From Klebsormidium nitens (Eukaryota > Plantae > Klebsormidiophyceae): a stretch of DNA of 64,000 nt. Shown piece by piece: positions 12,993 to 51,000 of this stretch. The stretch covers positions 30,743 through 94,742 of the forward strand of contig DF237315.1 of the NCBI GenBank assembly GCA_000708835.1, written 5' to 3'. The translations under genes and the position numbers were made by a program. Every line of letters begins with the position of its first letter. Position 1 is the stretch's first letter. The notes under the pieces are model-generated. The model was not told the origin of the DNA. It made no database searches and saw only the letters and a program-made list of their open reading frames with translations.

Positions 12993-15069
12993 CTACTTGC
13001 TCTGCTCTAGTACGCGGGTCTGCTCCGCGAGAATTTCCGTTATGGAGGTTGCTTCGGGGTCCTGCGAGACGCGAGCTAGTCCATATAAGCAAACGTACTC
13101 AAGATAAGCTACGCGGATCAACCACGCTTCATCGCGCTTTACATCTGCGCAGGACAGTACGTTGCAAACCCGACCACGTTTATCGAGCTTTGCATCTGCG
13201 CAGGACGATAAGTTGCAACAAACAGCGCTGTTGATTACCCGGTTAAAGATGCTTTGACAACGGTGAGGAGTAGTATGATAGCGTGACAATCAACAAGACC
13301 CTAAAGGCTCCTCTAGAGCGCAGAGGCTATAGAAGGCGAGCTGATGCGATACGCTCACGTGGCAAGCTCACCTGAACAAACTTGTCAATCGACTGCTGGT
13401 CGGGAAAGGGCGGTCCGTTGAAGCCGGCCCCGCACAACACCAGGTGAATCTCGCGCTCTCTGTCCAGTTGGGCAAACCTTATGCTCCTTTCCCGCTCGTG
13501 CGCCTCTAATGCATCCAAGATCAAGCGTTCCCACTCGGCGAGGCTCGGGCCTGACTCCGCCACAACGAAAGCCCGCACTGTCTCCAGGAAAGCGGTCGGC
13601 TCATCTGCGTCTAGCATTTTGACCACGCTCACCTCTGGCCTCCCTACTTTAAAGCTTCGGGAGTAGTCTTTGAAGGCTTTGTAATACTTGACATCCCCAA
13701 TCAGCGGAGAAGCTATTACTGTCACGGGCCAGACGCTCTTCAACTCCGCGAGTCTCCGCTCAATCTGTATGAGCTGATCTAGCGTCAGAGCCCTGACGAG
13801 CGGCCGTTCCGTTGCAGGGTCGAAGCTCCGCTCTCCGAGCATGAAGCGGATCGCGAAAGCGACGGCTTCCGCCGGATCCAACCGCAGCTTCGCCGGGAGA
13901 CACCGAAAGCAGTCCCAGTCTGAGCGATCCAGGTCGGGGGAAACCGGTGTGATGCAGGGGAAGCCAGCCATTCCGAGCACAAGGTGACCGGAAAGGCACA
14001 CGAATCCGGTCATGAGCATGTATCGTCCGTTGGCAAAGTTTGTCTCGTCCGGATTGTCTGCCCTGACATCCGCCAGAAGATGGTCGTAGGATTCCGCTGT
14101 GTAAGGACCGATAAAGGAGGAGTCGGGGAGAGGAAATGTCTGCGCGCCACAGTAGGGGCAAGCCGCGGCGAAGTCTTCGTCCAGCTCCGAAAAGTTACCG
14201 TATCCCACTCCTTCGTACTCGCTTGTTGGTGTTGTCGTCTCCTTCGAGCTGACCTCATTTTCCCCCTTTCCCGAATTCAAGCTGGTGTCTTGAGCGAAAT
14301 CGGGGGCTTCATCTTTCACCTCAAACAGCTCATACCCTCCCCCCCAATCCAAGTTCTCTTCACCCAGCTTCTCCTTCCGGTTCAGACACGCCGCTGCCCC
14401 GGTCGCTTGAGCGATCTCCGAGCGCTCAAAGTTTCTGAGCATGCCCCGAAACGGCAGGACGGGCGGCCGGGACACATACTCGTGCGTACCTTCCCGACGA
14501 AGCGCGGCGCGGTGGTACCTCTCACAGTACGACCGGCGCGCGACGAAGATCTCGTCTCCCCAAAAACGAGCGTCCAGAGACAGGGTCTGTCTCGCTTCTT
14601 CCCGCGAAACCCTGTGGAAACCTCTGGGCAGCTCTGTTTCGACGTGCCCCCGGCACTCGGTCCATTCGTACCGTCCCCATAGCGCGTCAGACTCCAACAC
14701 CGGCTCGAAGGTCGGGAATAGAATTCCCGGGCAGTAGACAAGCAGCTTGAACAGCCCCCTCCATCCGCCCGGGGGATCCCCCGCCCCTGGATCGTAGTAA
14801 CCCAGCTCCTCAACCAGCCCTGCTGCATGCGTCATGCACAGCTCCTTCCAGGTGACGTCATCCAAGATCTGACGCCACTCCTTGCAGACTGCTCCTAACG
14901 GGACAAGGTCTTTTGGATGGGGCCCTACTTTGGCAAAGACTCGCTGCAGGATGTCTGGGGCCAGATATGGAAGAGCACTGCGCGCTTCTGAAACGCCATA
15001 CTCTGCTTCAACATCTCCGGAAGAGGAGAAAAATGAGCAGGGATTGCGGAGCTGTGCGGTACGCTGCAT
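12993..15069 (-). CDS. EID1-like F-box protein, copy 1 (terminal zinc finger lost)
   Basis: F-box LAPDILQRVFAKV...LGAVCKEWRQIL. EID1/EDL-family blocks WKELC, GW..LFKLLVYCPG, FRG.LRNF..S, CPYC, FVCLSGH. Large exon 15069-13372 plus terminal exon 13061-12993 (DPEATSITEILAEQ...K*). The true start may lie in an upstream exon. Confidence 0.8.
13121..13218. repeat. Imperfect 52-bp tandem duplication in the copy-1 intron
   Basis: accacgcttcatcgcgctttacatctgcgcaggac...gttgcaa (13121) and accacgtttatcgagctttgcatctgcgcaggac...gttgcaa (13173). Confidence 0.8.
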
Positions 15070-17789: not shown

Positions 17790-19900
17790 CTGCAACACGT
17801 CATGTAAGCTCGATCGGGGGCAGCGCTCTGCTGAGTTGTGTACAAAAGCTTAAGAGTCTGTGACCACTACGCACTCATTTCTCAATCTTTTGACTACGCG
17901 GACCTGCTGATCTAAAAACCTCCACCACGGAGATAAGCATGCAGTCCTGTAAAAGAAGCTGAAACCGTTAGCCTTGACAGCGCGCGACGCTGACCACCTT
18001 CACCTGTTCATTCGAGGCCGGTGAGAAATGACCTGTAGTATTCAATAAGCAACACGTTCATGAGTCAGTATCTGGAAAAGCAACTTCTGCTTGACGTTGA
18101 CCTTTTGAGTGGCCACACGACGCGACAGATTCAAAGATGGCTCCCCAATCCAGGACTGAGGAGCCTTTGGTCCAACAATAAAGGATGAAATGCTCAAACC
18201 TCAGTCCTCAACGGATCCGCAGGACCCCTTCTCGGCCTAAGCCTCTAACTGACCCGGAACCGTCTCAGACTTTCCACCCTCTTACAATCTCAAGAGTCGA
18301 GACAGAACTTCTAAAGTATGAGTCTTCTGACAAAGGATACCTCAACGAATGTACGCGCCCCACGTGGCATGAAACTCACCTCCATATTCGTTTCAACCGC
18401 TTGGTCCGGAACTAGGGGGAGTGGAAGCCGGCATCACGCATCGCTCGCTGGCTTCGGCAGTCCCTACTGCACGGGACATTTTTTGCTTCTCCTCACGCTC
18501 GTGCGTTTCAAAAGCTTCCAAGATTGAGCGCTTGCATTCGGCAGCGGTCATGCTTCCGGTCCCAACAAATGCCCCGACAATTTCCAAGAGATCGGCTGGA
18601 ACATTTGATCTTAGCACCTTCATTATGCTGCCGACGCTATAGCGGTGCGGATACATGAGATCCTCGAACACCTTGTAAGAAAGAAGGCGGCCTTTGTCGA
18701 GAGGCCAGATTTCTTTGAGCTGCGTAAGCCTCGCCTCAACGGCCATCACCGTTTCTAGCTCTAAGCTGCTGATGTATCGCTGCCCTTCTTCCCGTGCCAA
18801 GCCTTGCTCTCCGGCCATGAAACGGACCATGAAGGCGACCGCTTCCGCTGGCTGGAGCTGCAGACGGTCGCCGGAATGCGGCACCGCTAGACCGCGGCCG
18901 AAATTTGGATGGCCAGCAACCCCAAGCACCAGGTGGCCGGCAAGGCATACGAAGCCGGTAATCAGCAGAAACCTCCCCTTCCAAACGAAGCCCTCGACAT
19001 GAAAGTCGTTCACGACATCTGACGTCATCACGTCGTAGCTCTCTGCAGCGTACGCCCCCGGGAAGACTATGCTCGGGAGATGGAACGTCTGGCCACCGCA
19101 GTATGGACAGGGGCCGGCGTTTCGTGGGCTTGAAACCTCCGCTTTGGTTTCTTCCCCGCTAGATCCCCTCTGAGACTTGGCCCCTTCTTTCAACCCACTC
19201 TGCGATCCGTCACACGCTTTCCCAGCTACGTTCTCTTGGCTGAACTTGGACGTTGCAGCACTGACACGCATAATTTTGTCGGCTTCGACTTCGTTCTTCT
19301 CGGTCAGAAACGTAGCAGCCCCGGTAACTTCGGCAAGTCCCGAGCTTCTGAAATTCTTGACGACGCCTCTGCAGCAGAAGATGGGAGGGGGGTTGTATTG
19401 GCGCAACAAGCCGCGCTTGCAGGCGGCATCGAAGTGGCAGCACAGACGCGAAACAACAATCTCATCCTCCACGGAAAGGAACAGGGCCTTCTTCGACTCC
19501 ACCCCCTTGCGATATTCCCTGAGTTCTGACTGTACGTGCCCCCGGCCGTAGGTCCAATCGTACTTTGCTTTCAGGGTCTCAGACTGCAACACTGGCTCAA
19601 AGGTCGGGAAGTGAACCCCCGGGCAGTGGACAAGCAGCTTGAACAGCCCCCTCCATCCCCCTGGTGGATCACCCGCCCCCTGGTGGCAGTACCCGAGCTC
19701 CTCCACCAACCCCCCCGCGTACATCAGGCACAGCTCCTTCCAGGTGACGTCATCCAGGACCTGACGCCACTCTTGCAGAATGCTCCCAAGGGGCCAAGGT
19801 CCTTAGGATTGGGCCCTAACTTGGCGAAGATTCGTTGCAGGATGTCTGGGCCTAGATAGGGCAGCGCAGTGCGCGCATCTGCAACGGTACATACTGCTGC
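17790..19900 (-). pseudogene. EID1-like F-box copy 2, disrupted
   Basis: 1-bp deletion inside the F-box (TGC AAG AG TGG at ~19772 versus TGC AAG GAG TGG in copy 1). Further frame disruption near 18400-18450. Decayed terminal exon (…ECVVVTDS*) at ~17790-17947. Confidence 0.75.
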
Positions 19901-20254
19901 ACCAGTGTAGTCAGAAACAGCAGAGAGTGAGCAGGGATTTTGAAGGCTGTTTGGTGTGTTGCATGCTGGAGGGATCTTTGTAGGCGTTACTAACTTGTAA
20001 GTTGTCTGGAGGAGAGACGTTGTCACCATATTCAGAGAAGTGTCCATTTAGAAGGCTTATCTGCAGACTGCATCCACTACCATTGAAGGTCCATTAGTTG
20101 GCAGGCTAGCCCTTTGGCGCGTCTCTATCGTCTCTGGGAAAAGTCTCCGCCGATGCACGCCGTGAGCACGCCCCAGGGGTATTCTGCTCCGCCCTGACCA
20201 TTCGACTTAGTAAGCTAGTTAGTTCAAGCTTGTGAGCTACCGGCCAGCTAGTCC

Positions 20255-27739: not shown

Positions 27740-30207
27740 ATGGCGAGGACCAAGCAGACGGCCAGGAAGTGCAGTGGTGGCGGAAGCAGGTTCCGAAGAT
27801 CGCCACCTCCCCTTGTGGCCAGTGACTCACGTCCAACGGGCAAGGCGTACTTAGAAGTGCTCAGGCAGCTCGAGCAGTCTCAGAGTCCCGTGTCCTCCGA
27901 GCACGTGACTGGTGTGGTTGCTGGAGTGATCGAGCAGAGCGTTTCGGACGCCCGCACCGCTCTGCCTGATCTGGGCCCCGACCTCCTCCAGCGCATCTTT
28001 GCAAAAGTGGGGCCGCATCCAAAGGACTTGGTTCCCCTTGGAGCCGTAAGCAAGGAGTGGCGTCAGGTTCTGAATGAAAGCACGTGGAAGGAGCTGTGCT
28101 TGGAGCATGCGGGGGGTTTGATCGAGGAGCTCGGGTATAGCAACAAGGCGGACGGGCCCCTGGGAGGATGGGCTGGGTTATACAAAGTCTTAGTGTATTG
28201 TCCAGGGTGTCACCTCCCAACATTTGAGCCTGTACTGCAAGCGGAAGCTTTGCGTGAGGACTACAACTGGACGCATGGCCGGGGCCATGTGGAAGCAGCT
28301 CCAAAGGGGTTTTGCAAGGGAAAGGAAGCGAAAGAGGCTCTGTATCTAGCAACCTCAGATGAGGTGGTCATCTCGCGCCTCTGCTCTCATAGACAGGCGG
28401 TTGAGATGTGCGATGCAGATGAGGCTTCGGCTCCTCCGATCCTGGCTTGCAGGGGCTTCGTCAAGTCCTTTGAGAGCTCAAAGCTTGCCCAAATGAGCGG
28501 GGCCGCTGCATTCTTGAGCAAGAGCATTGAGGCAGCGGGGGCGGCAAGCGGACCCGCAGAGTCTCCTCGCAAAGGAAGTGACCTGGAAGGAGCTGCGATC
28601 ACTTCTAATGTTGAAGGAATGGTAGATAAGGAGGATCTGGATGAGGAAGACTCAAATGCTTTCGACATAGATGACTCTGAAGAGTACTCCTTTGGGGACG
28701 AGGATGAAGGTAGAAGCGAAGGGGAAGCCAGCTCTGACTTGGAGGAAGCCAAGGAACTAGGGCCGCCATGTCTTTACTGCAGCAGCCCAATCTTCGCCCT
28801 GCCTCGCAAAGCCTTCGATCCTCTTTCGCATGTAGACTACGACGAGCTGCTATCAGAGTCTTTCTGTGATGCTTACGACAGGCATGAAGACGGCGATGAT
28901 TCGGAAGAGGACGAGCGCGATGACACAAAGTTTGTGCTAGCGTCGGGGTTTGTGTGCCTCAGCGGCCACATTGTTCTTGGGATGGCTGGATATCCCAAGT
29001 TGGTTGCACTTGGAGTGCCGCACTCTGGAGAAGCTCTGAAGCTTCCGCGTCCGCAAGCAATTGAGTTCCTGCTCAAGTTTTTGGTCGGGAAGCGAGGTTG
29101 GGACCACAGGGAGGGGCACCAGTTCATTCAGGGCCTTGGGCTAGATCAGCTGATCCAAATTGATGCCAGGCTCATGCAAAAGAGGAGGTCTGGCCTGTTG
29201 AGGAACGTGGAAAGTCGGACGATTACAGGACTTTCGGTTTTCTCTATAGAGGGCCGGAGTCTCCCGTGGGCATCGTTGACGTGCTAGAAGCAAAAGTGCC
29301 AGCGAGCCTCTTGGAAGTTGTGCAAGACTTTGTCCTGACGGGGAGTCCCGGCTTTGTCGAGTGCGAGCGGTCCATTTTCGACGCGTTTGAGGCTGTAGAC
29401 CGGAAAGAGGAAGAGGCGATGGCGTGTAGAAACAGAAGACAGGTGGTGGATGAGGCGTTACGCGGGGCAGGTGTAGGGTACCCCTTATGGCAGAATCTTC
29501 CCAAAGACCTGTCAAACACTCTGAAGGCTCATGTTGAAACAGGGAACCCAAGCCTTGCCGAGTGCAACAGTCTAATCCTGGAAGAGCGCGAGACGATCAA
29601 GCAAGAAGAGGAGCGGACCAGAGCTTTGGAACTCAGGATGAAAACAATCTCTGAGGCGTTGCGGCAAGCAGGCTTCGACTCCCAGTACCACCTGGTCCCA
29701 CACCAGCAGTCGCTGAGGGCGTACATAGACGTGAGTCTCACTGCTTTTGTCAATTCACTCAACAAATGATTGTATATACCGAAGAGAGACCCGTGCTATT
29801 ACCTCTGCTGATTGCAGCTTGCTTAGTTTGCATTCGCCTCCAAGCTGTTCTGCACGAATCTGAGCATCAAGAGCAGCTGCTGCATGTCTTCTCCAAATCT
29901 TGTGGTGCCTTGGTTGAGGCAAGGAGTTGGATGGTTTCAATTTGCTGTTTTCATTCATGCCCTAATGATACGCAATTGATGGTTGACTTTGACGTGCACT
30001 CCTTTTCAGGACCCGGGTTCGATTACTGTGGAGGAGGTCGTTGCGCAGCAAAGAGACGTGCGAGTGCAAAGCGGCAACTGTATTGGGGTCACAGACGGCA
30101 GACTTTGTGGAAACAAGGCGGCTCTTGCCTGCTCTAACAAACGTTGCGGGAACTGCTGCCGCAAACTTGTAGAACCCTGCCGTACGGCAAAGCATAGGAA
30201 GTCCTAG
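27740..30207 (+). CDS. EID1-like F-box copy 3 with H3-tail-like N-terminus and terminal Cys finger; one frameshift (pseudogene or homopolymer error)
   Basis: ATG at 27740 gives MARTKQTARKCSGG. Exon 27740-29730, intron, terminal exon 30010-30207. At ~29177-29184 the frame shifts (atgcaaaagaggaggtctgg); one extra A would restore MQKEEVWP, in register with the paralogues. An in-frame ATG also lies ~105 nt upstream. Confidence 0.75.
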
Positions 30208-33667: not shown

Positions 33668-34049
33668 CTGGAACCACAGATTACACGTGCGTCAGAAAGG
33701 GTGACCGTTCCGTTGAGGTTATAAGGCGGTTCTGGACCCTAACCCCTTCCGTTCTCAGTACATCTGGTCCTTTCAATCTCTTTTCTCCTTAAATCGACCC
33801 GCCAACACCCTCATAAGCCTGATTCAATACTGAGAGCCGGGCCATTTGATCGTAGGCACTAGAAGAAGCGGGGCATATAAAAGGATGGAGCGGATAAAGG
33901 TTGCCCTGTCAAACACTAACGCCATCAAAAAACTTAAAAGCAAGCGGCGTGTCTGCTAGGTGGCTCTTCGGCCGTTCACGCAACCTGACAGAGCAGGAAT
34001 CACCAATCGGAATGCAGAAAGTGGACGGAGTGCAAACTCAGACGCTGGA

Positions 34050-34950: not shown

Positions 34951-35159
34951 TCTTTGCCCGCGCCTATTTGTTGCTTGCCTATCCTTTCCCTCTTCCTTCC
35001 GTTCCAGATTTGCTCGTCAACCAAAAAATCAGGGATTATGCATCTCCGCACGAGGGATGCTAAGCTCGTCAAAAAATCATGCTTCGGGAGGGCTGCCAAC
35101 TTGGCAAGTCAAAGAGGAGGACACAAAAGGAGAGAGCGCAGAGTATGACTCGCTCTTAC

Positions 35160-35276
35160 CTTTAACTCTTTGATCTGTCCCTTCAATTTTGCAACGCCTG
35201 CGGCTTTGAAAGACGCAAAGCCTGCGGCTTCGAAAGAGGCCTGGTTCCTGGGGTCGTCAAACCGAGACGGTCGCAG
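35160..35276 (-). other. Orphan exon-like segment of unknown product
   Basis: CAG acceptor and AAG|GTAAG donor flank 117 stop-free nt (LRPSRFDDPRNQASFEAAGFASFKAAGVAKLKGQIKELK), containing an internal gcctgcggctt.gaaaga duplication. Confidence 0.35.
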
Positions 35277-36529
35277 CTGAAAACAGGTAGACAGCAGACT
35301 AGATCAGCAAATGGGTCCAGGTTTGATTGGAGTCATTGCAACTAGTGCTTTGTTCTAATATTCTGACCAGGATTCGAAGAACCGTAAGGACAATTCGCAA
35401 GTTTGGAAAAGACGAAACAGTTCCTGTTATTACGCCCTCGCTACGGTTCTTACTGAGAGCTGCGCGAGTTTCTCAGCTACAGAAGAGAGCATCTATTTCA
35501 CCTTACGGTTTCAAATGTACACAAAGCCTTTCAACAACTTTCTTTCTGCAACTTCTGCGCCCCGTTGCACTGAAACCAGCGGACCAGATTCTGTTTGCTT
35601 CCTAAGTTCTCCTTGAATCATCAAAATGCAGAAAAGAAGCATAAGGGAGATGGGCGCAGCTGACTGGCCCCACTCTCCTTATCTACAAGGCTAGACAGGT
35701 CAGACTCAACGCATTTGACAATCCAAGAACGTCTGAAATGATGCTAAGGTCGTACCCCTGTGCCTCTCCGCACTACTTGCGCCCCCCAGCTTGCCACAAA
35801 ACAAGTATCCATTTCCTCACCCATGTGCTTTTAGAAACTGTAGCTTTCAAAAACAAAGGTCTGAGCTTTTGAAGCGCCCAACTCATCATGAAACCACTCA
35901 ACAATATCCCATGTCAAATATTCGAGACCTGTAACTCTTGATTGAAGCAAGATTGCCTTACAGGGGCAAAAAGAAGCGACTTGCCGGGTCAACCCCAATG
36001 GATCCCGGCCATGAGACCACGATGCGAAGCCCTGCCACTACCCGCAGCAGCTCGGCAATCTGCATCAACCTGAAAGCAGCGGCAAAAGGTCTGATAAGTG
36101 CTTCTGAGAAGTAATGCTGGCCGCTGATGCTATAAGCTGCCTCGATATTCAAAAGCCCAATGTTTACTAACTGATGCTTCATGACAGTGCCCCAATCCTG
36201 GTCAATTTGTTCCGCACTGATGTTAAGTACGCGGCCCTGCTGCTCATACAATTTACACTGGGGTATACACGATTGCCAAAAGGATCTGACTTATGCATCA
36301 TTCGCTTCATTGCTGATCCTTGAAAAGACTCCACTAATCACGCTGACACCTGAGAGCTGGGGCAGTAGACGGGCTAAACTGGGAACGACAGGCAGATTGG
36401 TCGCTCCATTTCAACTTTCTGCAACAGCGATAACTTTTGACCTTGTAACCGGAGCAGCCAACAAAGTTTGTGCAGCTGGCGGCCCTATTTTATATATATG
36501 GAAAGTACAGCAAAGGTTGCACCACCCAC

Positions 36530-36740
36530 CATCGGCCGGGAGTGCTTCAAAGTGCCATGGCATAACGCTCGCCCCTTTTCCTCCTTGCCCTCCTCTCCTG
36601 GCAATGTCATTGTGAGAACTAAAGCCCGCTTCTCGTCCTTTCTCTCTGCCGTCCCAAGCTCCAAGCCCTGTCCTAACCTGTTTTGATTCTATCCTTTGCG
36701 CTTGTAGCCAGCATTGTTGTTGAAGGGACTGCGAAAAATT
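36530..36740 (-). pseudogene. Relic of ABM gene exon 1 (unit II)
   Basis: ALVLTMTLPGEEGKEEKGRALCHGTLKHSRPM|GT is homologous to 26670-26830. Frameshifted upstream, and no downstream ABM exons follow. Confidence 0.8.
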
Positions 36741-37059
36741 GCACCATGCGCTGGCAGCATTCCGGACGGCTTCAACACTTTTGGACGATGTCCTAAGCAT
36801 GTGACTCGCAGTGTCATTGTGAGCGTGAGTCCTCCAAGACGTGGACTTTGTGCAGCACTGCGGTCACTGCACTTTTGAAAGTTTCGTCCGCAGCTAAGGT
36901 AAAGAGATTCGCTAGGCAGGAGAGATGCACACATCTATCGATGCACAGAGCAGAAAAGACGCAAAATGGGTTGAGCAATGCAGCCCTCTTGAGCGCACGA
37001 GGGGTCCTCGCAATGCTGCAGCCTTTCAAAGGAGATTAGGTAGATTGACAGAGGCCGTG

Positions 37060-39480
37060 CCCTTAGCGGTGGTGGAAGCAAATTCGTAGACAACCACCTC
37101 CTCTTCTGCCCAGCGACTCGCCCAACGGGCAAGGCTTACTTAGAAGTTGCTCAGGCAAGCTCGCAGAGCAGTCTCAGACGCCCATTGCGTCGGAGCCGGC
37201 GGCGGCTGTAGTGGTCAAATGACAGGCATTTCGAACAGCCGCGGATCTTGGCCCCGACCTGCTCCAGCGCATCTTTGTGAAACTGGGGCCGCACCCAAAG
37301 GACTTGGTCCCCTTGGGAGCTGTCAGTAAGCAGTGGCGTCAGGTTCTCGATGAAAGCACGTGGAAGGAGCTGTGCTTGAGGTATGCGGGGGGGCTGGTCG
37401 AGGACCTGGGGTACGGCCATGGTGCAGACGCCTCCTTCGGCGGAGGATGGGCCGGGTTATATAAATTGTTAGTGTACTGCCCAGGGTGTCACTTCCCGAC
37501 ATTTGAGCCTGTGCTGCAGTCGGACGCTTTGAGTCTGAACTACGAGTGGATGCATGGCAGGGGCCATGTGGAAACAGTTGAAAAGGGGTTTTGTAAGGGG
37601 AATGAAACGAACGAGGCCCTGCATCTGGCGACACCAGATGAGATTGTCATCTCGCGCCTGTGCTCACATATCCAGGCGGTAGAAATGTGCGACATACATG
37701 ACGAGTCGGCTCTTCCGATCCTGGCTTGCAGAGGCTTCGTGAAGCGCTTTGAGGGCTCAGAGCTTGCCAAGATGAGCGGGGCCGCCGCGCTTCTGAACCA
37801 GAGGAGGAAAGAATCCAAAGCTGAGGGGGCAGCCAGCTCTGATTCGAAGGAGCCCCAGGAGAAGCCACCGTGTCTTTACTGTGGCAGCCCGACGTTTGCC
37901 CTGCCTCGCCAGGCGTTTGACTCCCGCTTCTCAGACTACGACAATATGATGAGGGAGTCTGTCCATGAAGCTTACGAAAAGCTTGAACAGGGCCATTTCA
38001 CGGATGAGGCGGACGATGACGAAAACGACTCGGTGTTTACTTTAGGGACGGGCTTTGTGTGCCTCACTGGCCACATTGTGCTTGGGATGGCGGGATACCC
38101 CAAGCTAGTTGAAAGCGTACTGCCGCAATCTGGAGAGAGTCTGAAGCTTCAGCGTCCGCAAGCGGTGGACTTCTTGCTGAAATTTGTGGTTGGGGGTGAC
38201 ACTCTGGAACGCGAGGAGGGGCACGAATTCGTGCAAGGCTTGGGGTTAGATCAGCTGATTCAGATTGAGGCCCGGCTTGCGCGACTGAAGAAAGTCTGGC
38301 CGGTGGAGGAGAATAGGGAGTCTGAAAAGGAGAACGAGGGGCCTGCCGATGCAAACCAGGCCAAAAAAGATCCTGAGAAATCCCTTGAGGACAATGAGGA
38401 GATTAGATACAAAACTTTTGGATACATGTATCTGAGAGGCGACTCTCTTGCGGGAATTGTAGATCTGCTAGGAGCAAGCGTGCCAGCCGATCTCTTGAAA
38501 GCCTTGCAGGATTTCGTTCTGACAGGGAGTACGAACCTTGCGGAGTGTGAGCGTTTGGTTTTAGAGGAGTTCGAAACCCAGAGGTGCAAGAAGGAGGAGG
38601 ATAAGGCCCGTAGGTTCAAAAGTGCTGCGGCAGAGGAGGCGTTGCGTGAGGCAGGTTTTAAGCACCCCTTTCTGGATCTTCCAAGCAGCCTTTCGACTAT
38701 GCTGAAGGCTTTTGTAGAAACGGGTTTTCCAAGCCTTGCAGAGTACGAACGGCTGATTTTGGAAGAGCGCGAAGTGCATCAGCAGCAAGAGGAGCGGAAG
38801 AAAGTTTTGGAACTTAGAAAGAACACAGTCTATCTGGCATTGCAGCAGGCTGGCTTTACCCCCCCAATGGTTCCGCACCCGCAGTCGCTGAGTGCTTACA
38901 TCGGGGTGAGTGTGCCACTCATTCAGAATGTTGTTCTGAGTACCCTGTTTGTCGAACTCGAAGCAAGTAACCTGGTTTCAAACTCGAAGCACAGGCCCGC
39001 ACTGCTAAACGTGTTGATTGCAGCTTGCTAATTATGCAATTCAAGTTTGCGGTCGCTCTCGAAGTTGTCCTGCTGTTCAGATTGCATCCGAATCATTGCT
39101 ACCTGCCTATCTTGGTCGTTCAGTGCCTTGCCTGAAGCAAGCATCTGAGTTGTTTGGACCGATGCTTGCTGCTTAACAAAGTAACCCAGCAGTAGTTGTC
39201 TATGGCTGACTAGACATGCACGTTTTTGCAGGATTCCAGTGCAATCACTTTGGAGGAGGTCGTTGCGCAGCAAAAGAGCGCGCAAGTGCAGAGCGTAAAC
39301 GGAGTGGAGCTTGCTGCACCACGAACGAGTGCACAAGAGCAGAGCCACAAATGCGCAGTGGTCACAGACGGCAAAGGCTGTAAGCATCCGGCGGCTAAAG
39401 GGTGCTCCAATGGAGGGTGCGGGCCTTGCTGTCGTAAAGCTGCGGAACCCTGCCGGTTAGGAAAGCACAGGAAGACCTAG
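37060..39480 (+). pseudogene. EID1-like F-box copy 4: body and terminal finger intact, 5' end (ATG/H3-like tail) eroded
   Basis: Open frame 37223-38905 plus terminal exon 39232-39480. An in-frame TGA lies at 37220 just upstream of the F-box. The H3-like segment survives only as ...agcggtggtggaagc, without its ATG. The gene could still be expressed through an unrecognised upstream exon. Confidence 0.6.
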
Positions 39481-40339
39481 GGTGAACTTCCTCATTTGCG
39501 CATCCTCTTGATAAGGGAATCCTCTAACCGTTTTTCATCAATTGACAGACCTGCCACAGGCTTCCCCTGATCAAAGGAGTTATCGTTTGGCCGAAAACTT
39601 GACGTACTCGGGCCCCGACTTAAGTCAAGTGAACGGTTCTAATACCTCGATTGAGATGTAGACGGTATGCCGATCAAAAGCTGGTCCATTGACAGACGGT
39701 CACACAGCGACTGTACATGTATCATGATTACATTTGAAGCGCTTGTGCAAGTGAACTAGCATGCTGTGATTCACACCATATAACTCAGGGCCGTCCTTGT
39801 GGATATCTTAAAGCCTGGGCCGCGCGGCGGTCCTTTGGCACATATGTGTGCCAGCACCGTGACATGTACCATGAGCGGACGTGCGACGCGTGCCAATTAT
39901 GATGCTCAAATATCTCGCGCGCTAGCTCGACAATTCATAAAATTGTAGTGCCGATTTGTCAAAACCTTATAATGATGTGAATGATCGATCACTAGCTGGC
40001 TACACATGGTTACTAGAGCGCTCGATCGTAGTATATAAGTGCTCAGATCGTCAGTATGAATACTATGCTACGTATATATTATACAGCCATATAGCTATAC
40101 TGCCGCAATTGCAGAGGTGCTTCCAATTGCATACTGCAGCCACATCCGACCGACCGTGAAGTATGATCACTCATTCACTGCCCTGCAGGGCATTGCATGC
40201 CTTATACCAACTTTAGGCGCGGCGGTATAGGTGGACTGCACTCATGTGCATAGTCGCACCGGTGGTCACTTACCGAAGGATGAAGATGCAATATTGTGGA
40301 TTCACCATCCAAACCTCTTGACAATATGCGCGCATTCAT

Positions 40340-43100
40340 TGGAAATTACATGGTGACTCGTCCAGCATCCAGTCGCGAGCCAGTCGAAAGAAGAGCCTTC
40401 AGGTTTGCTTGCGGCGGATACAAACGTCGGGCCTTCGCTACAAAGCTACAAAGAAGCTGGTGCCCTTCGCTTTCCTTATCCCCCGATCCAAAAGGGAGGG
40501 AATGGGGGGCCCGTCCTTTCATCCTATGTACAGGCAATCCAACGACGTTTGGCAACGCCTCCCCTACCGGGTGGGCCGTCGGGCTCAGCCTCCGCGAGAG
40601 CGCGCCTCCCGTAAACAGCCCCCCCGATTACGAGAGCTATTGCCACGATAATACCCCCGACGTTGAAGGTGATCTCGACCCAGGTGATCTTAGGCTTCCC
40701 TCTGTGCTATGTCCCGCCAAAGAAAGCCACTGCAGAACCGACGAGGAATTAAACGCCGCCACGAATACAGCGTCAAGGACCTGCCGGCCTCGTTTTAGTA
40801 TGCCTGGAAATGTTGCAAAAATCTGCAGGATATGGACATCCGCAACAGTGCGCAGGCGCACCAAACGCGACCTCGCAAGATACCCTACAGCCAAAGGAAA
40901 ATCTCTCACGACATCCGTCCCAATCCTCCCCCCCGGACGATCCTACAGAGGCCTGAAAGAGACGGCCCGACCTCCTTCGCTGCCATCTCAACCACGCAAA
41001 GTCCAATCTTCGAAGAAGCTCAGCAAACCCTGATCCTGGATTCGTTGAGCAGAGGGAAAAACGAAGGCGCCAGAACAGATCACATATGCGAAAAAGACAC
41101 GGATTTGAAGCAGGTGGGGCGCCCATCGAACTTACTCAAAGGAAACACGAAAGACGAACTGAAACACACGATGACGCCAACATCAATGTCGCCGGATTTA
41201 GAGTCTAGGCCATCAGCCGAGGGCCACATGTGACGTCCGCTCAAGGAAAGTTCACTTGCCGTCTTTGGGAAGAGGACGGCAGATCTCGGTGCGACAAGAA
41301 AGATTCCCTTTCAGCCATCCCTATTAGTTCTGATGAACCTCACAACGGTCACAGGTAGAGGCAAGACAGCTTTGTACCCAGCACGTGTTGACATGAAACA
41401 AGAATAGAACCGAATGACCGCGCCTTCACCTGTAGAGGGCCACGAAGATCTTCGGAAAATGCCTACGAGGGAGCTGGTGATGTAGGGCAGGTACTGGATC
41501 TTGGTCGTCGTGACCATTTAGTTGAAAATCGGGTAAGGCGGGAACGGTGACAGCCGGACGAGCGCGGCGACGCGGTACTGGCCCCAGGACCCGCTCTGCG
41601 AGCGCAGACGGAGAATCGTAATGAGTCTCAAGAAAGAATATAATTTGCCAAGGTAAATAAAAAGCCTCGACTAACACCAATATTTTCAACCTGCAAACTC
41701 ATCTGCTCCGCACCTGTGGTCAGCCTATCAGTTAAAATCCCCAAAGTCTACCCGTCTCAGTGCATTGACCTTGTCATATCTTAACGTAATAGTATCTTAC
41801 TTCAGATTGGTAGAAGTGAGCATTTTGGAGCCACTTGCTTCTTTACAGACCCATCAATCCCAGTCTAACGAGACCGGAATTGGGCACAAAGCGCCACTGT
41901 TATGCGGGCCCTCAAAGGAAGCTGTTCGAAGAGGCTTCTTTTGAGGGTTGCACTCGGACATGAGCAGTCGACAAACTTCTGAACAGATCGGAGAGAAAGT
42001 AGCGTGTGTTTTGTGTCGCATTATGAGTATCGGAAGATTGAAGTGTCACTCTTCAAAGTGCCCTTTGACATCTCTATCAAAGCACGAGTCCGCATCAGAA
42101 CGTGTTCACCGGCTAAATTCGGCACTTAGGCAGGAAGCATCTCTGAATGTGATCGCCAATCCGCTTCTACCACTCACCTGGTTGCAAGAATTTCGGCTTC
42201 GACACTAGCCACTTATGCACCCAGTCACTGGTGGAGAGCGCCGCCCAATGAAGTAGAACGCCGGCATTCCCAGCCCCATGTCAACCTGTGTCAGAACATA
42301 ACCCCAAGCATACCTGAGGGGCTCGACGGCGGATGAAAGATTGAAGAGATAGCGAGGCAGAAGTCTATGACAAAGATCAGCAGCGGCTTATTGACAGTGA
42401 TAACGGCCCACTCTCAAGGACAGGAATGACGGCCTGTAAGAACGGGTGTGACGATTTTGGTGGAGAGCTATGCGCTGACACTGAGTTATACTGCTTCAAA
42501 TTCGCTGGAGTAGGAACGCAAGGTAAAGTTCAGGGCGATTGAGTGCAAAAAAGCGACCTGCGAGTTTGGAATGAACTTGATTGACAAGGTTGTATATTAT
42601 CTGTCTCAAAACGCGAACCGTGCTTGTAACAGTCTTTCTGAAAAGGGAAGTAAGCGGCTCAGTCTAAGTGCAGTCAACGGACATCAAGCTTGCCAAGCTC
42701 GCCATGGTTAAGCCAACGACGAGACTCTAGTCCTCCAAGTCAATCACACCAGTTCTAAACTGATCTTGTTACGGAAGGCATCGTCAAGCACAGAGAAAGC
42801 TTGAGGGCAATGATCGCACTTGTATGGCCCACACTATCCTCCTCTGAGAAACTAGACATGTCAGTTACGCACTTTATCTGGACGCTACAAGAAAATCAAC
42901 CCTGTAACACTGTTTCTAAGCACCCCCAACTCATCCTGACTTGATCCACCCTAATGCTCACCTCAATGCCTTCAGATCTATTATAGACCTTGATCAGAAC
43001 AAAGATGCTTTGAAGGGGCAGAAGCAAGCGGCTTGCCTGGTCAATGAGGATGGAACCCAGCCCCAAGACTGCTATGCCCAGCGCCACCACCAGCTACTAG
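40340..43100 (-). pseudogene. Multi-exon relic of the TVP38/TMEM64 gene (unit II), lacking exon 1
   Basis: Decayed homologues of exon 5 (~40340-40750), exon 4 (~41440-41600), exon 3 (~42225-42440) and exon 2 (~43010-43100), in the same order as the intact gene. Confidence 0.85.
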
Positions 43101-43567
43101 GCCCGGCAAGGAGCAGTCCGGATCCACCTAAAAATAGTGGCAGACAGTCTGACTGTGTGCTTTTGAAGTATAAGAATCCCTGCTGACGAGAAGCTGACTC
43201 CCATTCAAATAGCTAGCGTTAGTGACCAACACGTCAAAGGAGAGCGGCTCAGTACGTTCCTGCTGATGACAAGTGTGCAGCCCTGATGAGAGATGGTTTG
43301 CAGCTAGGCTACAAAAAGCTGGCCAAAACAATGAAGATGCGTCACTCGCTTCATTGCCAATCCTTGCAACAGCACCGAGGATCAGTCTGAAACATGACAG
43401 CTTGGGCAGTAGACTGTCTAAAAACAGAGAGGCAGATTGGTCGTTTCATATCCAACTTCTGACAGCGCCAGCTCTTGACATAACCTGGTCGGAGCAGCCA
43501 ACAAAGTTCGTGCAGCTGACAGCCCCAGTCATTCGTATGGAAAGTACAGCGAGATTGCACCACCCAC

Positions 43568-43917
43568 CATCGGTCCCGGAAGTGCTTCAAAGTGCCCCGC
43601 ACAACACTTGCCCCTTCTCCTCCTTGCCCACCTCCCCTGGCAATGTCACTGTGAGCTCAAAGTCCGCTTCTCGTCCCAAGCTCCAAACTCCGTTCTAACC
43701 TGTTTGATTCTACCCTTGCGCTTGTAGCCGGCACTGTTATCCTTCTCCCCCCGTATATGAGCTGCTCTGCTGAATATATGGGCCTCCGCGACGGCCTGCC
43801 TGCTACCTCTCCCGCCAGGCAAGAGCGCCTGACTTCTACAGCTCAGTGAAGGGGAAAAGGTCTTGAGCAATGCGGTCTGCCCCGCATTGCACACTGCCAC
43901 ATTCTGCAGGTGGCCAT
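43568..43917 (-). pseudogene. Relic of ABM gene exon 1 (unit III)
   Basis: ATG at 43917. LSCRSQALLPG.R.SRQAVAEAH is shared with the intact copy. Frameshifts, the same donor (ATG|GTGGG), and no downstream exons. Confidence 0.8.
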
Positions 43918-44624
43918 GGTTTCTGACCCTAGTGCTGACTACAAGACACAGTAGTCTCTTGTGAACTGCATTATGCGTGCAACTTCTGATAAAAATGAAA
44001 GCAGATGTTGTGGCCCATGGAATGATGAAGCAGGTTGTGCTAAAGACCCAGACCCCTCAGGAGCCGCTGTCGCTGGTGGATAACTCTACCGTTGTGTAAA
44101 TACCGTCTTGCACGTGCGGCTCATCAGCTGGAACTCGCAGACTAGCGTACGCCTCTAGGGCAGAGGTGGATAACTCTACCTTTCACAGTTTCTCCAGGAA
44201 AGTCGCTCAACGATACAGTCTTACAGAAAACGAAAGCGCACCTTGGTTCCTGCTGCAGAACCTGCATTCGCTGCCAGATTCAGCATTTTGAAGAATTTCG
44301 GACAGATTCAACACAATTTAAGTTTCGGCCATCTTCAAGTTCTACAGAGTCAGTTCGATTCAATGTAATAGTATTACAGTTAAACTGAACGTCCGCTACT
44401 GATGTTCTCTTCTCATAAGCCCGTACTGATCGTTTTTGTCCAATGGGAGGTCCGTTTATGTGGGAGTTCGAAAGTCTCTGAGCCGCACCCCGCCTGAGGA
44501 GAGCAGCCAGAATCTTTTGAGCAATGAAGCGCGCTTGAGCCCACAAGAGGGTCCTCATAATGCTGCAGAGGTTGCGCACCGCTTGAACACTTTGAGAGGT
44601 GATTCAAAAGTTAGCCGCAGGCCA

Positions 44625-47274
44625 ATGGCGAGGACCAAGCAAACTGCCAGGAAGTGCAGTGGTGGCGGAAGCAGGTTCCGGAAAGAAACCCCTCGTGTGG
44701 CCAGCGATACACGTCCCACAGGCAAGGCGTACTTGGAAGCGCTGAAGCAGCTTGCAGCAAAGTCTCAAAGTCCCCTTCCCACCGAGCAGGCGGCTGCTGA
44801 AATATGTGGGGCACCAAAGCAGAGCATTTCAGAGACCCGCACCGCCCTGCCTGATTTGGGCCCAGACCTGCTGCAGCGCATCTTTGCAAAACTGGGGCCG
44901 CACCCAAAGGACTTGGTCCCCTTGGGAGCTGTCAGTAAGCAGTGGCGTCAGGTCTTGAACGAAAGCACGTGGAAGGAGCTGTGCTTGAAGCATGCGGGGG
45001 GGTTGGTTGAGGAGCTTGGGTACAGCCACGGGGCGGATGGGCCCCCCGGAGGCTGGGCTGGGTTGTACAAACTAATAATATGCTGCCCAGGGTGTCACTT
45101 CCCAACCTTTGAGCATGTGCTGCAGGCAAACGCTTTGAGTGAGAACTATGACTGGAGGCATGGCCGGGGCCACGTGCAAGCAGCAACGAAGGGTTTTTTT
45201 AAGGGGAAGGAAGCGAAGGAGGCCCTGTACCTGGCAACCTCAGATGAGATCGTGATCTCGTGCCTGTGCTCTCATGGCCAGGCGGTCGAGATGTGTGACA
45301 TACATGAGGCTTCGGCTCCTCCAATCCTGGCTTGCAGAGGCATCGTCAAGAGCTTCGAGAGCTCAAAGCTTGCTGAATGGAGCGGAGCTGCTGCATTTGC
45401 AAACCAGAAGGGCGAGGCAGCGGGGATAGCAGGGGAGCCTGTAGACTCCTCGAGCACGCAGAATGAAGTGGTGGAAGCGGCGGGTGCTTCTGACGGGGAA
45501 CCGTCTGGCGGCGAGATGGGGGAAGAGGCGGACTTGGACGAGGAAGCTGCCTCTGAGTCCGAAGACTTTGAAGCTTACCCCTCGGGTAGTGAGGGCGAAG
45601 GCTCCGAGGGGGAAGTGAGCTCTGATACAGAGGAGCCCGAGGAAAAGCGGCCGCCCTGTGCTTACTGCGGCAGCCCAACGTTCGCCCTGCCTCCTAAGGC
45701 CTTCAATTCTCAGTTCTCGGATTACGATGATCTGCTGTCGGAGTCCTTCTGTGACGCTTACGACAGGCATGAGCAGGCCCGGTCAATGTATGAGTCGGAC
45801 GACTCGGAAGCGTCGAATAACGACTCCATGTTTGTGCTGGGAACAGGGTTCGTGTGCCTCGAAGGCCACATCGTGCTAGGGGTGGCTGGTTACCCCAAGT
45901 TGGACGAGGTTGCGGTGGTGGACTCTGGAGAAAGTCTGGAGCTCCAGCGGCCGCAAGTGGTGGACTTCTTACTCAAGTTCGTGGTTGGGGGCAAGACCTT
46001 GAGCCGGAAGCAGGGGCATCGATTCATTCGAGGCCTGTTGTTAGATCAGCTGATCCAGATTGAAGTGAGGCTTGTGCAGCTGGCAAAGATCTGGCCGGCG
46101 AAGGAGAAAGAGGGGTGTGACAAGGCGAATGAAGAGTCTGATGGGGCAGATGGGGAGTCTAGTGAGGTCATTAAGGAGCCTGATGAGGAGACTGAGGGAG
46201 TCAATCAAGAGAAAGAGTCCAAGGATTACAAACTTTTTGGATACATGTATAAGAGAGGCAACGATCCTGTGGGCATAGTCGACGTGCTCGGAGCGGGCGT
46301 GCCAGCCGATCTTTTAGAAGGCCTGCAAGCTTTCGTTTTGACAGGAGATCCAGGCCTTGCGGAGTGTGAGCAACCGATTTTGGGGGCGTTTGAGACTCAG
46401 GCGCGAAGAAAGGAGGAGGCGGTCGCCCGGAAGATCAGAAGTGATGCAATGGACAAGGCGATGCGCGGGGCAGGTTTCAAGCAACCCTTCTTTCGGGGCC
46501 TACCCAGCGACCTCTCGAAAACGCTAAAGGCTTTTATCGAAATGGGGGACCCGAGCCTGGCAGAGTGCGAACGTCTGATCCTGGAAGAGCGCGAGTCGCG
46601 CGAGCAGGCAAAGGCTTCGGAGTTGAGAAAGAACACAATCTATCAGGCGCTGCGGCAGGCAGGCTTCCACCCCCCTTCTGTTCCGCACCTGCAGTCGCTG
46701 TGCGCTTACATACAAGTGAGTCGTCACCCCTCTCGTAGATTTACCAGTTGTTGATAGTGAAGCAGAGGTACGGAATGCTAAACTTTCTTATTGCTAGTTG
46801 GTGATAACGCATCTCATGTTTGCAGTCCCTCTCCAGGTTTTTCGATGTTAGTTTTGTGCAACAGAGCAATCGCTGCATGCCTTACTAGTAGTGTTCTAAG
46901 TGTCTTGTCTGTAGCAAGGCTTTGAGCGTTCGGACTGTTGATGTCCAAGATGATAAAAAAGGTGTTAACTTGGTGGTACGCCGTCGAGGTCTTTGGCTGA
47001 CACTGTATGCACTCTCGTCCAGGACCCCGGTGCAATCACTTTCGAGGAGGTAATCGCACAACAAAGGAGCGCGCGAGTGCAAAACGTCGTAAGCAGAGTG
47101 GAGGTTGCCGCGCCGCGAACGAGTGCACAAGAGCAGAGCCACAAATGCGAAGTGGTCACAGACGGCAAAAGTTGTACGAATCAGGCGGCTAAAGGGTGCT
47201 CCAATGATGGGTGCGGGCCTTGCTGCCGGAAAGCTGCAGGACCCTGCCGTCTAGGAAAGCACAGAAAGACCTAG
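44625..47274 (+). CDS. EID1-like F-box copy 5, intact, 780 aa: H3-tail-like N-terminus, F-box, EID1-like domain with acidic insert, helical repeats, SHI-like Cys finger
   Basis: First in-frame ATG at 44625 (MARTKQTARKCSGGGSRFR). Exon 44625-46715 (2091 nt) plus exon 47023-47274 (252 nt) join in frame with GT-AG ends and no stops. Confidence 0.85.
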
Positions 47275-48085
47275 TGTGAACACGCTGGAAAATGAATAGA
47301 CATTCCTCTAACCGTGCTTCATGGATGGACAGACCTGCCACAGACTTCCTTGATTACACAAGAGTCATCTCTTGGCGGAATCCTTGACTTGGGCCTCGAC
47401 CTGGCTTGAGTGAACGGTTCTTAAATACCGAGATACAGACGGTATGCCAGTCACTACATAGAGATCGTCAGACAATCAGCGACTGTACATGTATGAAAGT
47501 ATGTTTGGAGCGCCTGCATATACGAGTCTTATTTCAGCACATGCTATGGTTCTCCTAAATGCAGTCCTTATATATAGTATGTATACGATCTTCTGATCGC
47601 TATGATTCCTCATATAACCTGGGGGTCGTACATGTGTGTGTGCACATGTGCACATACTGAGCATGCGGCCGCTAGGCCATGGCACATGTGCGCTTAAGCA
47701 TACTCTTCAAGCCAGCTATCATACAGCTAGCTTCAGCATGCTCCGAATTGTAGTGCGAAGTTCAATTAATCATCAACTGTGAACGTGTTAGTATATATGT
47801 AGGCTGCATATCGCTTGCAATTCCTACATCATAGCCATGGCTATAGGCCGCGCTTGCATGCCGACCAGGAGACTAGGGTGTTTCCGATTATACCGTAATC
47901 TATAATTGAAAGTTCAATCGATGCGTGCAAGGCACAGACTTGTTTACACCAGCTTTACTTGAAGGCGCGACAGTTTAGGTGGGCTGCACTTATGCATGGT
48001 CGCGGGTTGTCAGATGCCGAAGGATGGAAATGCAATGTTGCAGATTTCCCATCAACAACCTCTCCATAGTATGCGTGCATTAAAA

Positions 48086-51000
48086 TCACGTAGTATCTCG
48101 TTCAGCATCCAATTGCGAGCCAGTTAACATAGTAGAGCCTTCAGGTTTGCTTGCGGCAGATACTAACGTCGGACCTTCGCTGCAAAGAAGCTGGTGCCCT
48201 TCGCTCTCCTCATCCCCGGATCCAAAAGAGAGGGACTGGGAGGCCCGTCTGTTCATACTATGTACAGGAGATCCAACGACGTTTGGCAACGCCTCCCCTA
48301 CCGGGTTGCCGTCGAGCTCTTCTGAGTTTTCAGCCTCCGCGAGAACGCGCCTCCCGTAAACAGCCCCCCCGATTACGAGAGCTATTGCCACGACAATACC
48401 CACGACGTCGAAGGTAATCTCGACCCAGGTGATCTTGTGCTTCCCTCGGTGGTAGTCTGCTATGTCCCGCAAAAGAATGCCGCTGCATAACCGACGAGGG
48501 ATATCATTGTAAGCGGCAGAAAGGAATCAACGTTAAGGATCTGTCGGCCTCGATTTAACGAGTCTGAAAATGTTGCAAAACACCTGCTAGTTGGTTCGCA
48601 GGCAGATCCACCAGCCTCGTAAGGTCCCATACAACTCAAGGGGAAGTGCCTTAGGAAGACCGGTCCGTGCCTCCTCCCGGACGGTTTTTCAGAGGCCTAC
48701 GAGGGACGGCCCAATCTACTTAGCTTCCAGACTCTCAACCGTGCAGAATCCTCGAAGAAGCTGAGCAAATCCCGATCCTGGATTCGTTGGCCAAAGCAAA
48801 CTAAAAGACGAAGGCGCCCGAAGAAAACAAATATGCGGATAAAGACACATATTCTGAAGCAGATTTGGCGCCCGATGAACGCACTAAACGGAATCATGAG
48901 CGTTCATCAGCCGAGAGTCATACTTTTCCGAGAAGGAAGTAAGCGAGAAGGATGAGACAGACTAGGACACCAAGACCAACATCGCCGGATGCACATCTGA
49001 AGAGGCAAATGTGAATTCCGCATCAAAAGAGGTCCAATTGCCTTCAAACGGTGGCAATCTGTTTCGTAAGAATGCCTATCAGCGGAACAGAACCGTTTCT
49101 GACCGAACCTCACAAGTAGTCACAGGTAGATGCAAGACGTGCGTTTAAGCAGCACGTGTCAAACATGGTTTTTGGAAAAGCAAATGACCGTGCCTAACCT
49201 GTACAGCGCCACGAAAATCTCTGGAAAGATGCCTGTGAGGGAGCCGGTGATGTAGGGCAGGTACTGGATCTTGGTCATCGTGACCGCGTAGTTGAAGATG
49301 GGGTAAGGCGGAAAGGGCGACAGCCGGAAAAGCGCAGCGACGCGGAACTGGCCCCAGAAACCGCTCTGCAGAGGAGAACGGAGGAATGAGCACAAAAGGT
49401 TCGCTGCTGCATTTATGCCAATCATCGAAGCATGCGCTGGCGAGCCTTCTCTCTTCGCGCACCGCGGTGCCTCCAAAGACGTTCGCCTTGTACGAGATGA
49501 TTCGGAAGCATTACGATGATAGAACACCAAGGGTCAGGAAGGAGCAGTCAATTCGAGTCATGTCAGAGTTGCAAACATCAAGTATGACCCGACCTACAAC
49601 GGGAAAAGGATCGTCACAGGCCCACTTTCGAAGATGTGTTTGAATAGCATCGATGAACTGCGCTTCATCGGACATCTTCAATATTCTAGGAAGTTTCTGG
49701 CCAGCCAGTGGGGGTGATCGGGCTCTGCTGGTATCTTCGCCTTCGATCCATCCATCAACACCGCTTCGCTTTTCTCACTCACCTGGTTTGCCGCCCGCAG
49801 CAGCGCCACGTATCTCGGCTTCGAGTTGATCCACGTTTGCACCCGGTCGTGCAGTAATCGCCGCCCGATGAAGTAGGTTGCGGACATTCCCAGCGCCATG
49901 CCAAATAACGTCAGGACGTAACCCCAAGCGTACCCAAACGAGATGCCAGCTAGCCAGATGAGGGGGCTCGACGGGACGAGGAAGATCGGAAAGACGGCGA
50001 GGGAGATGACTATGACAAAGATCAGGAGCGGCTTGCTCAGGGTGGTGTCCGCCCATTCGAGCGCGGGGATGACAGCCTGTAAGAAACGGACAGAAGATTC
50101 TGTAAGCAGGACCAATCAGGTGGAGTCTTCTGAGATCAAATCAGAGGAAAGGACCCGATCGCAAATCGCTCCAGAAATGGTGAAGGATTGGAGGGCAACA
50201 GAGAGTCTAAGAATTAATCAAACTCGAGGAACAAGTCTGTTGCATACAGCCTGCCCTGGTCAGCGAATCTGTGTTTGCTGCAACAGACATAGATGAATGG
50301 AGCCACGTGCTTAATCTGCAGTACTCGCCACAACCAAACCAGCGAACGTTGCCCAGTCTTCCAAGTCAATCAGAAAGCTACCGTTTAGGCTAGACAGCTT
50401 CGACAGAGACGAGAGTCGATTGACGTGAAAGTCGATTGACGCGAAGTCTTTGAAAGTGTCGTTCTGCAACTTTTGTAGTCTATACAGAGACCCGCAGACA
50501 CTTTCTAACCCTCCTGATCTTCCATCGAGTGCAGTCCCACACGGAGAAGATGCTCGAGGGCAATGTTTGAAGCCATCTTGCCCGCTGACCCTTCCGAGGG
50601 ACTAAACAATACAGTCCAAACGACATTCATTCAACAACATAATAGATGGGAAGCTGCTAAGACTGTAAGCGGACCCTGCGCTTGTGGCATTCTTCGGCTC
50701 ATTGATCGAGCCAGCATAACGTCTCACCACTCCAACTTAAGACCTGTGACTCTTGATCGAGATGGATTCACTCTGCAGGGGGGAAAGGAAGCGACATACC
50801 TTGTCAATCACTATGGGACCCAGCCACGAGACTGCGATGCCCAGCGCAACCACCAGCCCCAGGAGAGTAGCAATCTGCACCCACCTAATAAGAACAGCAA
50901 ACAGTTTGGTTAGTCCCTGTAAGAATCAGGTGATGGCCGCCGATATCATAAGCCAACTCGTCCTTCAAAACAGCCAGCGTTCCCTGATCGAGAAGTCAAA

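Follow-up and report, generated by a model that had tools for sequence, protein, structure and literature searches.

The alga Klebsormidium nitens encodes an F-box protein that begins with a near-copy of the tail of histone H3, and this H3-tailed protein is transcribed, conserved and old. Its gene, copy 5 (44625..47274, plus strand; 780 amino acids; NCBI GAQ87636.1), is the sole intact tail-bearing gene in the window, the 64,000-nucleotide stretch of DNA analysed here, which holds five paralogs of one F-box family. We propose that the tail is a histone-mimic docking handle through which proteins that read or write H3, or the site on chromatin where they sit, would be drawn to a nuclear SCF ligase, a reading to which we give an even chance on sequence evidence.

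An H3 tail at the first residue

Copies 5 (ATG 44625) and 3 (ATG 27740) both start MARTKQTARKCSGG. Aligned with the H3 of solved structures (MARTKQTARKSTGGKAP), the tail is identical at residues 1–9 and 12–13, that is, at 11 of 13 positions. A six-frame scan of the window for the 9-residue H3 motif, with up to three mismatches allowed, returned two sites only, 44628 and 27743, both without a mismatch and immediately 3′ of an ATG; scan and alignment together uphold the match noticed in the sequence-only reading. With the composition of the F-box family, 11 residues would agree at fixed positions by chance with a probability of ∼4e-14, or ∼3e-12 if any two positions may mismatch. Similarity to H3 stops by about residue 20–30.

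In copy 5 the Met and the 13 H3-like residues defined by this comparison (ARTKQTARKCSGG) occupy 44625..44666 (+), and the copy 3 tail (27740..27781, +) is identical. The block that is invariant between the two copies extends further, to 44681. Within codons 1–19 they differ at codons 6 (CAA in copy 3, CAG in copy 5), 7 (ACT, ACG) and 19 (CGG, CGA), all silently, and 35 bases are identical letter for letter (27761–27795 in copy 3, 44646–44680 in copy 5). The earlier count of three synonymous differences followed by divergent sequence is thus exact, about 50% of the linker behind the block being changed. ATG 44625 is also, as had been read, the first in-frame ATG of copy 5, and it is the start of GAQ87636.1. 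Two relatives from other records, P0002 and P0129, have gene calls that begin at this Met too, and in all four tail-bearing sequences the tail lies at the extreme N-terminus when copy 3 is read from the conserved ATG. The H3 tail is real and stands at an annotated and conserved start.

Transcription and the start codon

Four of 24 listed sequencing runs, from four studies, were compared with positions 27350–47349. The runs are not recorded as RNA, a status inferred from contigs that skip introns. Such contigs, found in all four runs, skip the GT..AG introns of copies 3, 4 and 5, which shows transcription and splicing of all three. In each of the four runs the contig of copy 3 starts at base 27766, with no cover upstream by depth arithmetic, a gap to which we attach no weight. 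At this base begins the earliest 31-letter word that distinguishes copy 3 past the 35 bases common with copy 5, so that a break here is expected if both transcripts include the second half of the tail; the transcripts of copies 3 and 5 therefore probably carry it.

An upstream ATG had been raised as something that might bury the motif in copy 3. Such an ATG exists, in frame at 27635 and 35 codons upstream, and is the start of NCBI model GAQ87632.1. However, the homologous ATGs open a 4-codon upstream reading frame in copy 5 (MKRA*; 44524..44538, +) and in copy 4 (MQPS*; from 36978), so the in-frame extension of copy 3 is probably derived. The alignment of copy 3 shows the stop of this short frame lost through a one-base gap.

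Protein architecture of copy 5

Copy 5 consists of exon 1 (44625–46715, +), a GT..AG intron (46716–47022) and a last exon (47023–47274), and its product is 100% identical to GAQ87636.1, annotated ‘F-box family protein’. Behind the tail lies a variable linker (residues 20–72; 44682..44840, +) with a better-kept segment at residues 29–43 and a helix predicted with low confidence at 33–46. The F-box follows (residues 75–122; 44847..44990, +), scoring above the Pfam cut-off for PF12937 (33.5 bits in copy 5 and 28.6 in copy 3, versus 24.3) and evolving with a dN/dS of 0.06 between the two copies.

Residues 123–425 (44991..45899, +) form an EID1/EDL-like domain according to ESM Atlas matches. The top matches are clusters of PF27778 EID2_C (scores 0.94, 0.92 and 0.92, with 186 shared features for the first), an annotation precomputed on P0006–P0008 and not on P0001 itself; structural rows 1 and 2 are also EID2_C, below the naming bar. 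The domain is split by a weakly conserved acidic loop at residues 261–342 (27 D/E and 3 K/R in 82 residues; 35 of 78 positions identical). A helical region separates it from the last exon, which encodes a Cys/His-rich, zinc-finger-like C-terminus common to copies 3, 4 and 5 and which gave no Pfam match in copy 5. The last exons of copies 5, 4 and 3 (47023–47274, 39232–39480 and 30010–30207) carry the motif C-x-N/H-x-AA-x2-C-x4-C-x2-CC-x6-C-x4-H, which we take to recall the RING-like finger of SHI/STY proteins.

Pfam scans of copy 5 to E 1 and E 5 returned no histone family, and the histone fold is absent. Together with the PF12937 score and the EID2_C matches, this upholds the description of the protein as an EID1-like F-box protein and not a histone. 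The AlphaFold model of copy 5 is poor (mean pLDDT 46.8, pTM 0.30); a Foldseek search with this low-confidence model found nothing at E 0.001, and residues 1–45 gave no usable ESM Atlas match.

Selection on the tail

Between copies 3 and 5, codons 2–19 contain no nonsynonymous change in 41 sites and three synonymous changes in 13 (Fisher P=0.012). The absence of replacements has a probability of 2e-4 at the rate of the rest of the protein, where dN/dS is 0.26 at a dS of 0.80, and of 1e-5 at the rate of the linker, where 27 of 52 residues are identical. The dN/dS of the tail, to which the sequence-only reading had looked as a check, thus came out on the side of constraint, with zero replacement against three silent changes. 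Silent changes in the tail are likewise rather few (pS 0.24 versus 0.49, P=0.05), which would be compatible with gene conversion.

P0002 is about as diverged from copies 3 and 5 as those are from each other and keeps residues 1–17 exactly, with identity at all 13 H3-matching positions as against 30 of 53 in the linker, a pattern not easily explained by gene conversion within the cluster of copies 1–5. In copy 3, copy 5 and P0002 the non-basic residues T3, Q5, T6, A7, G12 and G13 are as strictly kept as the basic ones. In copy 4, deletion of the tail coincides with frameshifts in the same copy. Judged by these substitution patterns, the tail is under purifying selection. Since the invariant block outruns the H3 match (G14-S15-R16), some of the constraint has a cause other than H3 mimicry.

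Relatives and origin of the tail

A profile search of 1.84 billion representatives yielded 63 members of the F-box family, many of them fragments. Two of the 63, copy 3 and P0129, have the tail motif, and it is lost or absent in three of the five copies in the window, so the tail appears dispensable for most of the family. P0129, which is 35–41% identical to copies 5 and 3, starts MARERITARKTTGGKAP (extended form MARERITARKTTGGKAPLHRL; pairwise E 3e-6). Of its first 20 residues 13 agree with H3, among them T11-G-G-K14-A-P (to P16), a stretch missing from copies 3 and 5; conversely it is without the T3-K4-Q5 that they keep, while retaining A1-R2 and TARK9. Its linker behind the tail is unalignable. 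Constant in the four tails (copies 3 and 5, P0002 and P0129) are A1, R2, T6, A7, R8, K9, G12 and G13.

That the P0129 tail is eroded differently argues for an ancient graft out of an H3 gene; since the two patterns of erosion complement each other, the simplest reading is a single old capture that took in 20 H3 residues or more. H3 residues 1–20 or more would have been captured by an ancestor of the Klebsormidium-type subfamily, eroded differently in two branches and lost in copies 1, 2 and 4. Trees of 8, 19 and 12 rows were built from the best matches, with fragments and distant land-plant-type rows omitted. The best tree places P0129 outside copies 1–5 (SH-aLRT 94), which implies loss of the tail in the branch of copies 1 and 2; a tree that unites the tail-bearers in one clade is borderline (p-AU 0.051). 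On these trees the tail may have been gained once and then lost, or gained twice independently. The expectation that orthologues would keep the tail was borne out in part, in P0002 (residues 1–17) and P0129 (13 of 20), but only two of 63 representatives carry it, and K4 and S10 vary.

In further searches, no short or fragmentary relative was recovered with residues 1–60 among 550 candidates, land-plant-type members of the 63-member family search had no H3 tail, and none of 27 pattern matches on viral contigs was a relative of the F-box family. A search for long H3-tailed proteins, with the H3 of locus L010 as query, gave 2125 matches; all 120 of those listed carry the histone domain PF00125, which makes the search uninformative about fusions of the tail alone. 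A metagenome scan for the variant tail found 10 loci, none of them an F-box gene and all with C-T-G-G; seven have a histone fold, one an early stop, one is cut by the contig end and in one the tail is fused to another domain.

The emphasis of the sequence-only reading on K4 and K9 held for one residue of the two: K4 is not constant, P0129 being without T3-K4-Q5, and the K9 context (TARK9) is kept. The loss of K4 from a tail that keeps A1-R2 and TARK9 suggests that K4 counts for less than the K9 context and the free N-terminus. The two tails, eroded in different ways, serve as a mutagenesis done by nature and suggest that A1-R2 and TARK9 are the residues that do the work. The idea that the S10-to-C change removes a phospho-switch is weakened, because P0129 has T, the residue at position 11 is a serine, and ordinary H3 proteins are found with C10 as well (2 of 38 viral loci). 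C10 is also present in the seven histone-fold metagenome loci, but there the scan pattern required it. With T in P0129 and C10 in ordinary H3, the change is no safe sign of design.

Histone-fold H3 proteins with Cys for Ser10 (ARTKQTARKCTGG) were seen at L001–L003, L006–L008, L010, L014 and L028, on metagenome and viral contigs. Three viral or metagenome loci have an H3 tail without the histone fold. L009 (3001–3705, +), on a metagenome contig, bears ∼37 H3-like residues with C10 on an unknown 234-residue protein; L027 (2501–2935, +), from a giant-virus bin, has 21 H3-like residues on a coiled, acidic-then-basic protein of 145 residues; and L040 (1598–2530, −), also from a giant-virus bin, reads MARTKQTARKS followed by four KKRGRPK repeats, which we presume to be AT-hook-like.

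A proposed docking handle and its alternatives

Removal of Met before Ala is established and human proteins that mimic H3 at their N-terminus bind PHD and Tudor readers in vitro (PMC8166343), PHD fingers depend on the amino group that residue 1 carries (PMC9757060), and Arabidopsis EDL3, which of the relatives studied is the nearest, interacts with ASK proteins and is strictly nuclear (PMC3223051). Met removal, this need of PHD fingers and the properties of EDL3 are the grounds for proposing a docking handle on a nuclear SCF adaptor, and copy 5 would by analogy be nuclear. Cleavage of Met before Ala would free Ala1-Arg2 for PHD fingers. Given the constant A1-R2, T6-A7-R8-K9 and G12-G13, the likely partners would be PHD fingers that read the N-terminus together with writers or readers of K9, and readers of K4 would be possible in the branch of copies 3 and 5 only. 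The F-box would bind SKP1.

The docked protein might itself be ubiquitinated, or it might mark the place, like an address, with substrate choice left to the EID1-like domain; we regard the two versions as about equally probable. Substrate binding in F-box proteins usually lies C-terminal to the F-box, and the tail of copy 5 is N-terminal to it, which speaks against the docking handle. One tentative and rather doubtful extension is a trap encoded by the cell, in which readers or writers of H3K9 or of the free H3 N-terminus bind the adaptor as they would a nucleosome and are ubiquitinated, their degradation tuning the chromatin machinery.

We consider it unlikely, though a serious rival, that the captured H3 piece is a nuclear-import signal only, replacing the basic tip of other family members. 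H3 tails do serve as import signals, residues 1–35 hold 10 K/R and 2 D/E, and P0129, having swapped TKQ for ERI, is still basic. Of the 63 relatives, five have other basic tips (M-x-x-K-R/P-x-T/G-R-S), at the start or within the sequence, and EDL3 is nuclear (PMC3223051). However, an import signal needs no invariant T3, Q5, T6, A7, C10, S11 or GGG over a silent divergence near 0.8, and TARK and GG persist at 35–41% identity. Moreover, K14 and K18/K23, which we take to be the importin-4 contacts of H3, are absent in copies 3 and 5. The five tips, of the form MASKRxTRS, belong to P0149, P0150, P0154, P0157 and P0186; P0150 is a named K. nitens protein.

Alternatively, the tail could be a sensor on the adaptor, marked by histone enzymes so as to control the stability or activity of the F-box protein, with readers not being substrates. 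This we find improbable, and the same holds for the particular case in which the tail folds back onto the protein's own acidic loop. F-box proteins do turn over via auto-ubiquitination, and a basic tail and a strongly acidic loop (27 D/E in 82 residues) are joined in one chain. PAF15 offers a precedent, its H3-like N-terminus being itself ubiquitinated by the docked enzyme (PMC9757060). Against this, lysines matching H3 K14, K18 and K23 are missing in copies 3 and 5, the loop is poorly kept (35 of 78 identical) and the structure model is too weak for any contact (mean pLDDT 47).

A passenger of an old H3 capture that merely supplies the start codon, with the sameness of copies 3 and 5 due to gene conversion or to constraint on DNA or RNA, has a low probability in our judgement: the 35 identical bases and low silent divergence (P=0.05), the perfect tail of a frameshifted copy 3, the loss of the tail in copy 4 and its erosion in P0129 all fit, but none of the three differences within 19 codons changes a residue (Fisher P=0.012), P0002, a separate record at paralog-level divergence, keeps residues 1–17, and P0129 retains 13 of 20 H3 residues in front of an unalignable linker.

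Relation to known histone mimics and F-box proteins

Influenza NS1, LIG1 and G9a have internal or C-terminal short H3-like motifs that engage histone enzymes or readers. NOP16 and SetDB1 likewise have short H3-like motifs in non-histone proteins with such partners. The motifs of all five look convergent and are not N-terminal, whereas copy 5 looks like copied H3 at the true first residue.

Closer are the human H3TMs of PMC8166343 (VRK1, BCL11B, TSHZ1, MEF2C, PCLAF, MAPK8 and HIVEP1), which share with copy 5 a non-histone start of Met, small residue, Arg, x, Lys, and for which loss of Met and presentation of R2 and K4 to PHD fingers are predicted. Copy 5 and P0002 have the H3TM motif M-Z-R-X-K, as M-A-R-T-K, where translation is annotated to begin; the M-A-R-E-R of P0129 does not fit it. 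The H3TMs as described there are human and have a 4-residue motif, in contrast to the nine consecutive identical residues, K9 context and plant SCF adaptor of copy 5. Neither ‘FBX’ nor ‘F-box’ occurs in two supplement files of PMC8166343.

PAF15/PCLAF (PF15715, ‘PCNA-associated factor histone like domain’) resembles copy 5 as a non-histone with an H3-like extreme N-terminus, although no PF15715 match appeared in the Pfam scan of copy 5. The PHD finger of UHRF1 reads this N-terminus (VRTK) like H3, in a ubiquitin pathway (PMC9757060). PAF15 is an E3 substrate, whereas in copy 5 the mimic sits on an E3 adaptor.

Arabidopsis EID1 and EDL1–3 (PF27778; PMC3223051) have, like copy 5, an F-box and then an EID1-type domain with CPG, GH, CxYC and CxxGH. 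Unlike them, copy 5 is twice as long, has the H3 tail, acidic loop, C-terminal helical region and Cys/His-rich end, and belongs to a Klebsormidium expansion.

The sequence-only reading knew of no described F-box family with an H3 tail, and our literature search agrees, having found, in sources that mostly exclude subscription papers, no description of such a protein or of the copy 5 gene. In the accessible text of a survey of chromatin evolution (10.1101/2021.11.30.470311) ‘F-box’, ‘mimic’ and ‘Klebsormidium’ are each absent, and that of a review of viral histones (PMC9145170) describes no H3-tailed F-box protein. Two supplement files of a Klebsormidium phosphoproteomics study (PMC10783624) hold no Klebsormidium identifiers and are hence uninformative.

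The histone mimics known from cells are either ligase substrates or short motifs carried by chromatin proteins. An H3 tail of 13–20 residues opening a ligase adaptor, selected and transcribed in a streptophyte alga that is grown in laboratory culture, would directly link the histone code to targeted proteolysis.

The gene cluster and the other copies

Copy 1 (13327..15069, −) is a paralog without an H3 tail. Copy 2 (18393..20047, −) is frameshifted and has no recognisable tail; a possible remnant in its upstream DNA was not significant, its score being matched in 39 and 67 of 1000 shuffles. Copy 3 is a 515-residue reading frame (27740..29287, +) with tail, F-box and EID1-like domain, truncated by a frameshift near 29170–29200 that removes the C-terminal part. 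The frameshift is transcribed, falling within an ungapped RNA contig, and is followed by the homologous downstream frame and then by an intron (29731–30009). Model GAQ87632.1 spans it with an intron seen in none of the four runs. Because of this truncation copies 3 and 5 do not make a two-gene functional family, and the earlier view of them as one is weakened. Copy 4 (37050..39480, +) has lost ∼20 nucleotides near 37056, the ATG and most of the tail included, and has further frameshifts with a stop ahead of the F-box, yet is transcribed and spliced.

Each of copies 3, 4 and 5 is paired head-to-head with one copy of a small gene on the minus strand, which argues that the pair was duplicated in tandem as a unit. 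The partner gene is duplicated and spliced (40400–43925, 31000–36800 and about 49200–50910, all −), and its exons resemble, we presume, a small membrane protein of the TVP38/DedA type. A non-coding stretch of 32 bases, ∼300 bases upstream of the tail ATG, is 91% identical between 44281–44312 and 27445–27476 and is a candidate promoter element common with the head-to-head gene. A scan for plant histone-promoter motifs gave a single match, TGACGT, in copy 3 only.

Between the two head-to-head genes, ∼75 bases at 44075–44181 are flanked by two copies of a 16–17-base direct repeat. RNA contigs from other genome sites end at 44075–44181, some with a poly-T loose end at 44092–44098. From its sequence, the interval looks like a short retro-insertion with a target-site duplication. 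A repeat of about 300–900 bases, 74–79% identical, flanks units 4 and 5 (40326–41150, 48000–48900 and 31240–31555). Finally, a second duplicated gene pair lies between copies 1 and 2 (15444–16790 and 20558–21913, both +); without a Pfam match at E 1, it has a basic N-terminal RKRRQR and an F-box/LRR-like look.
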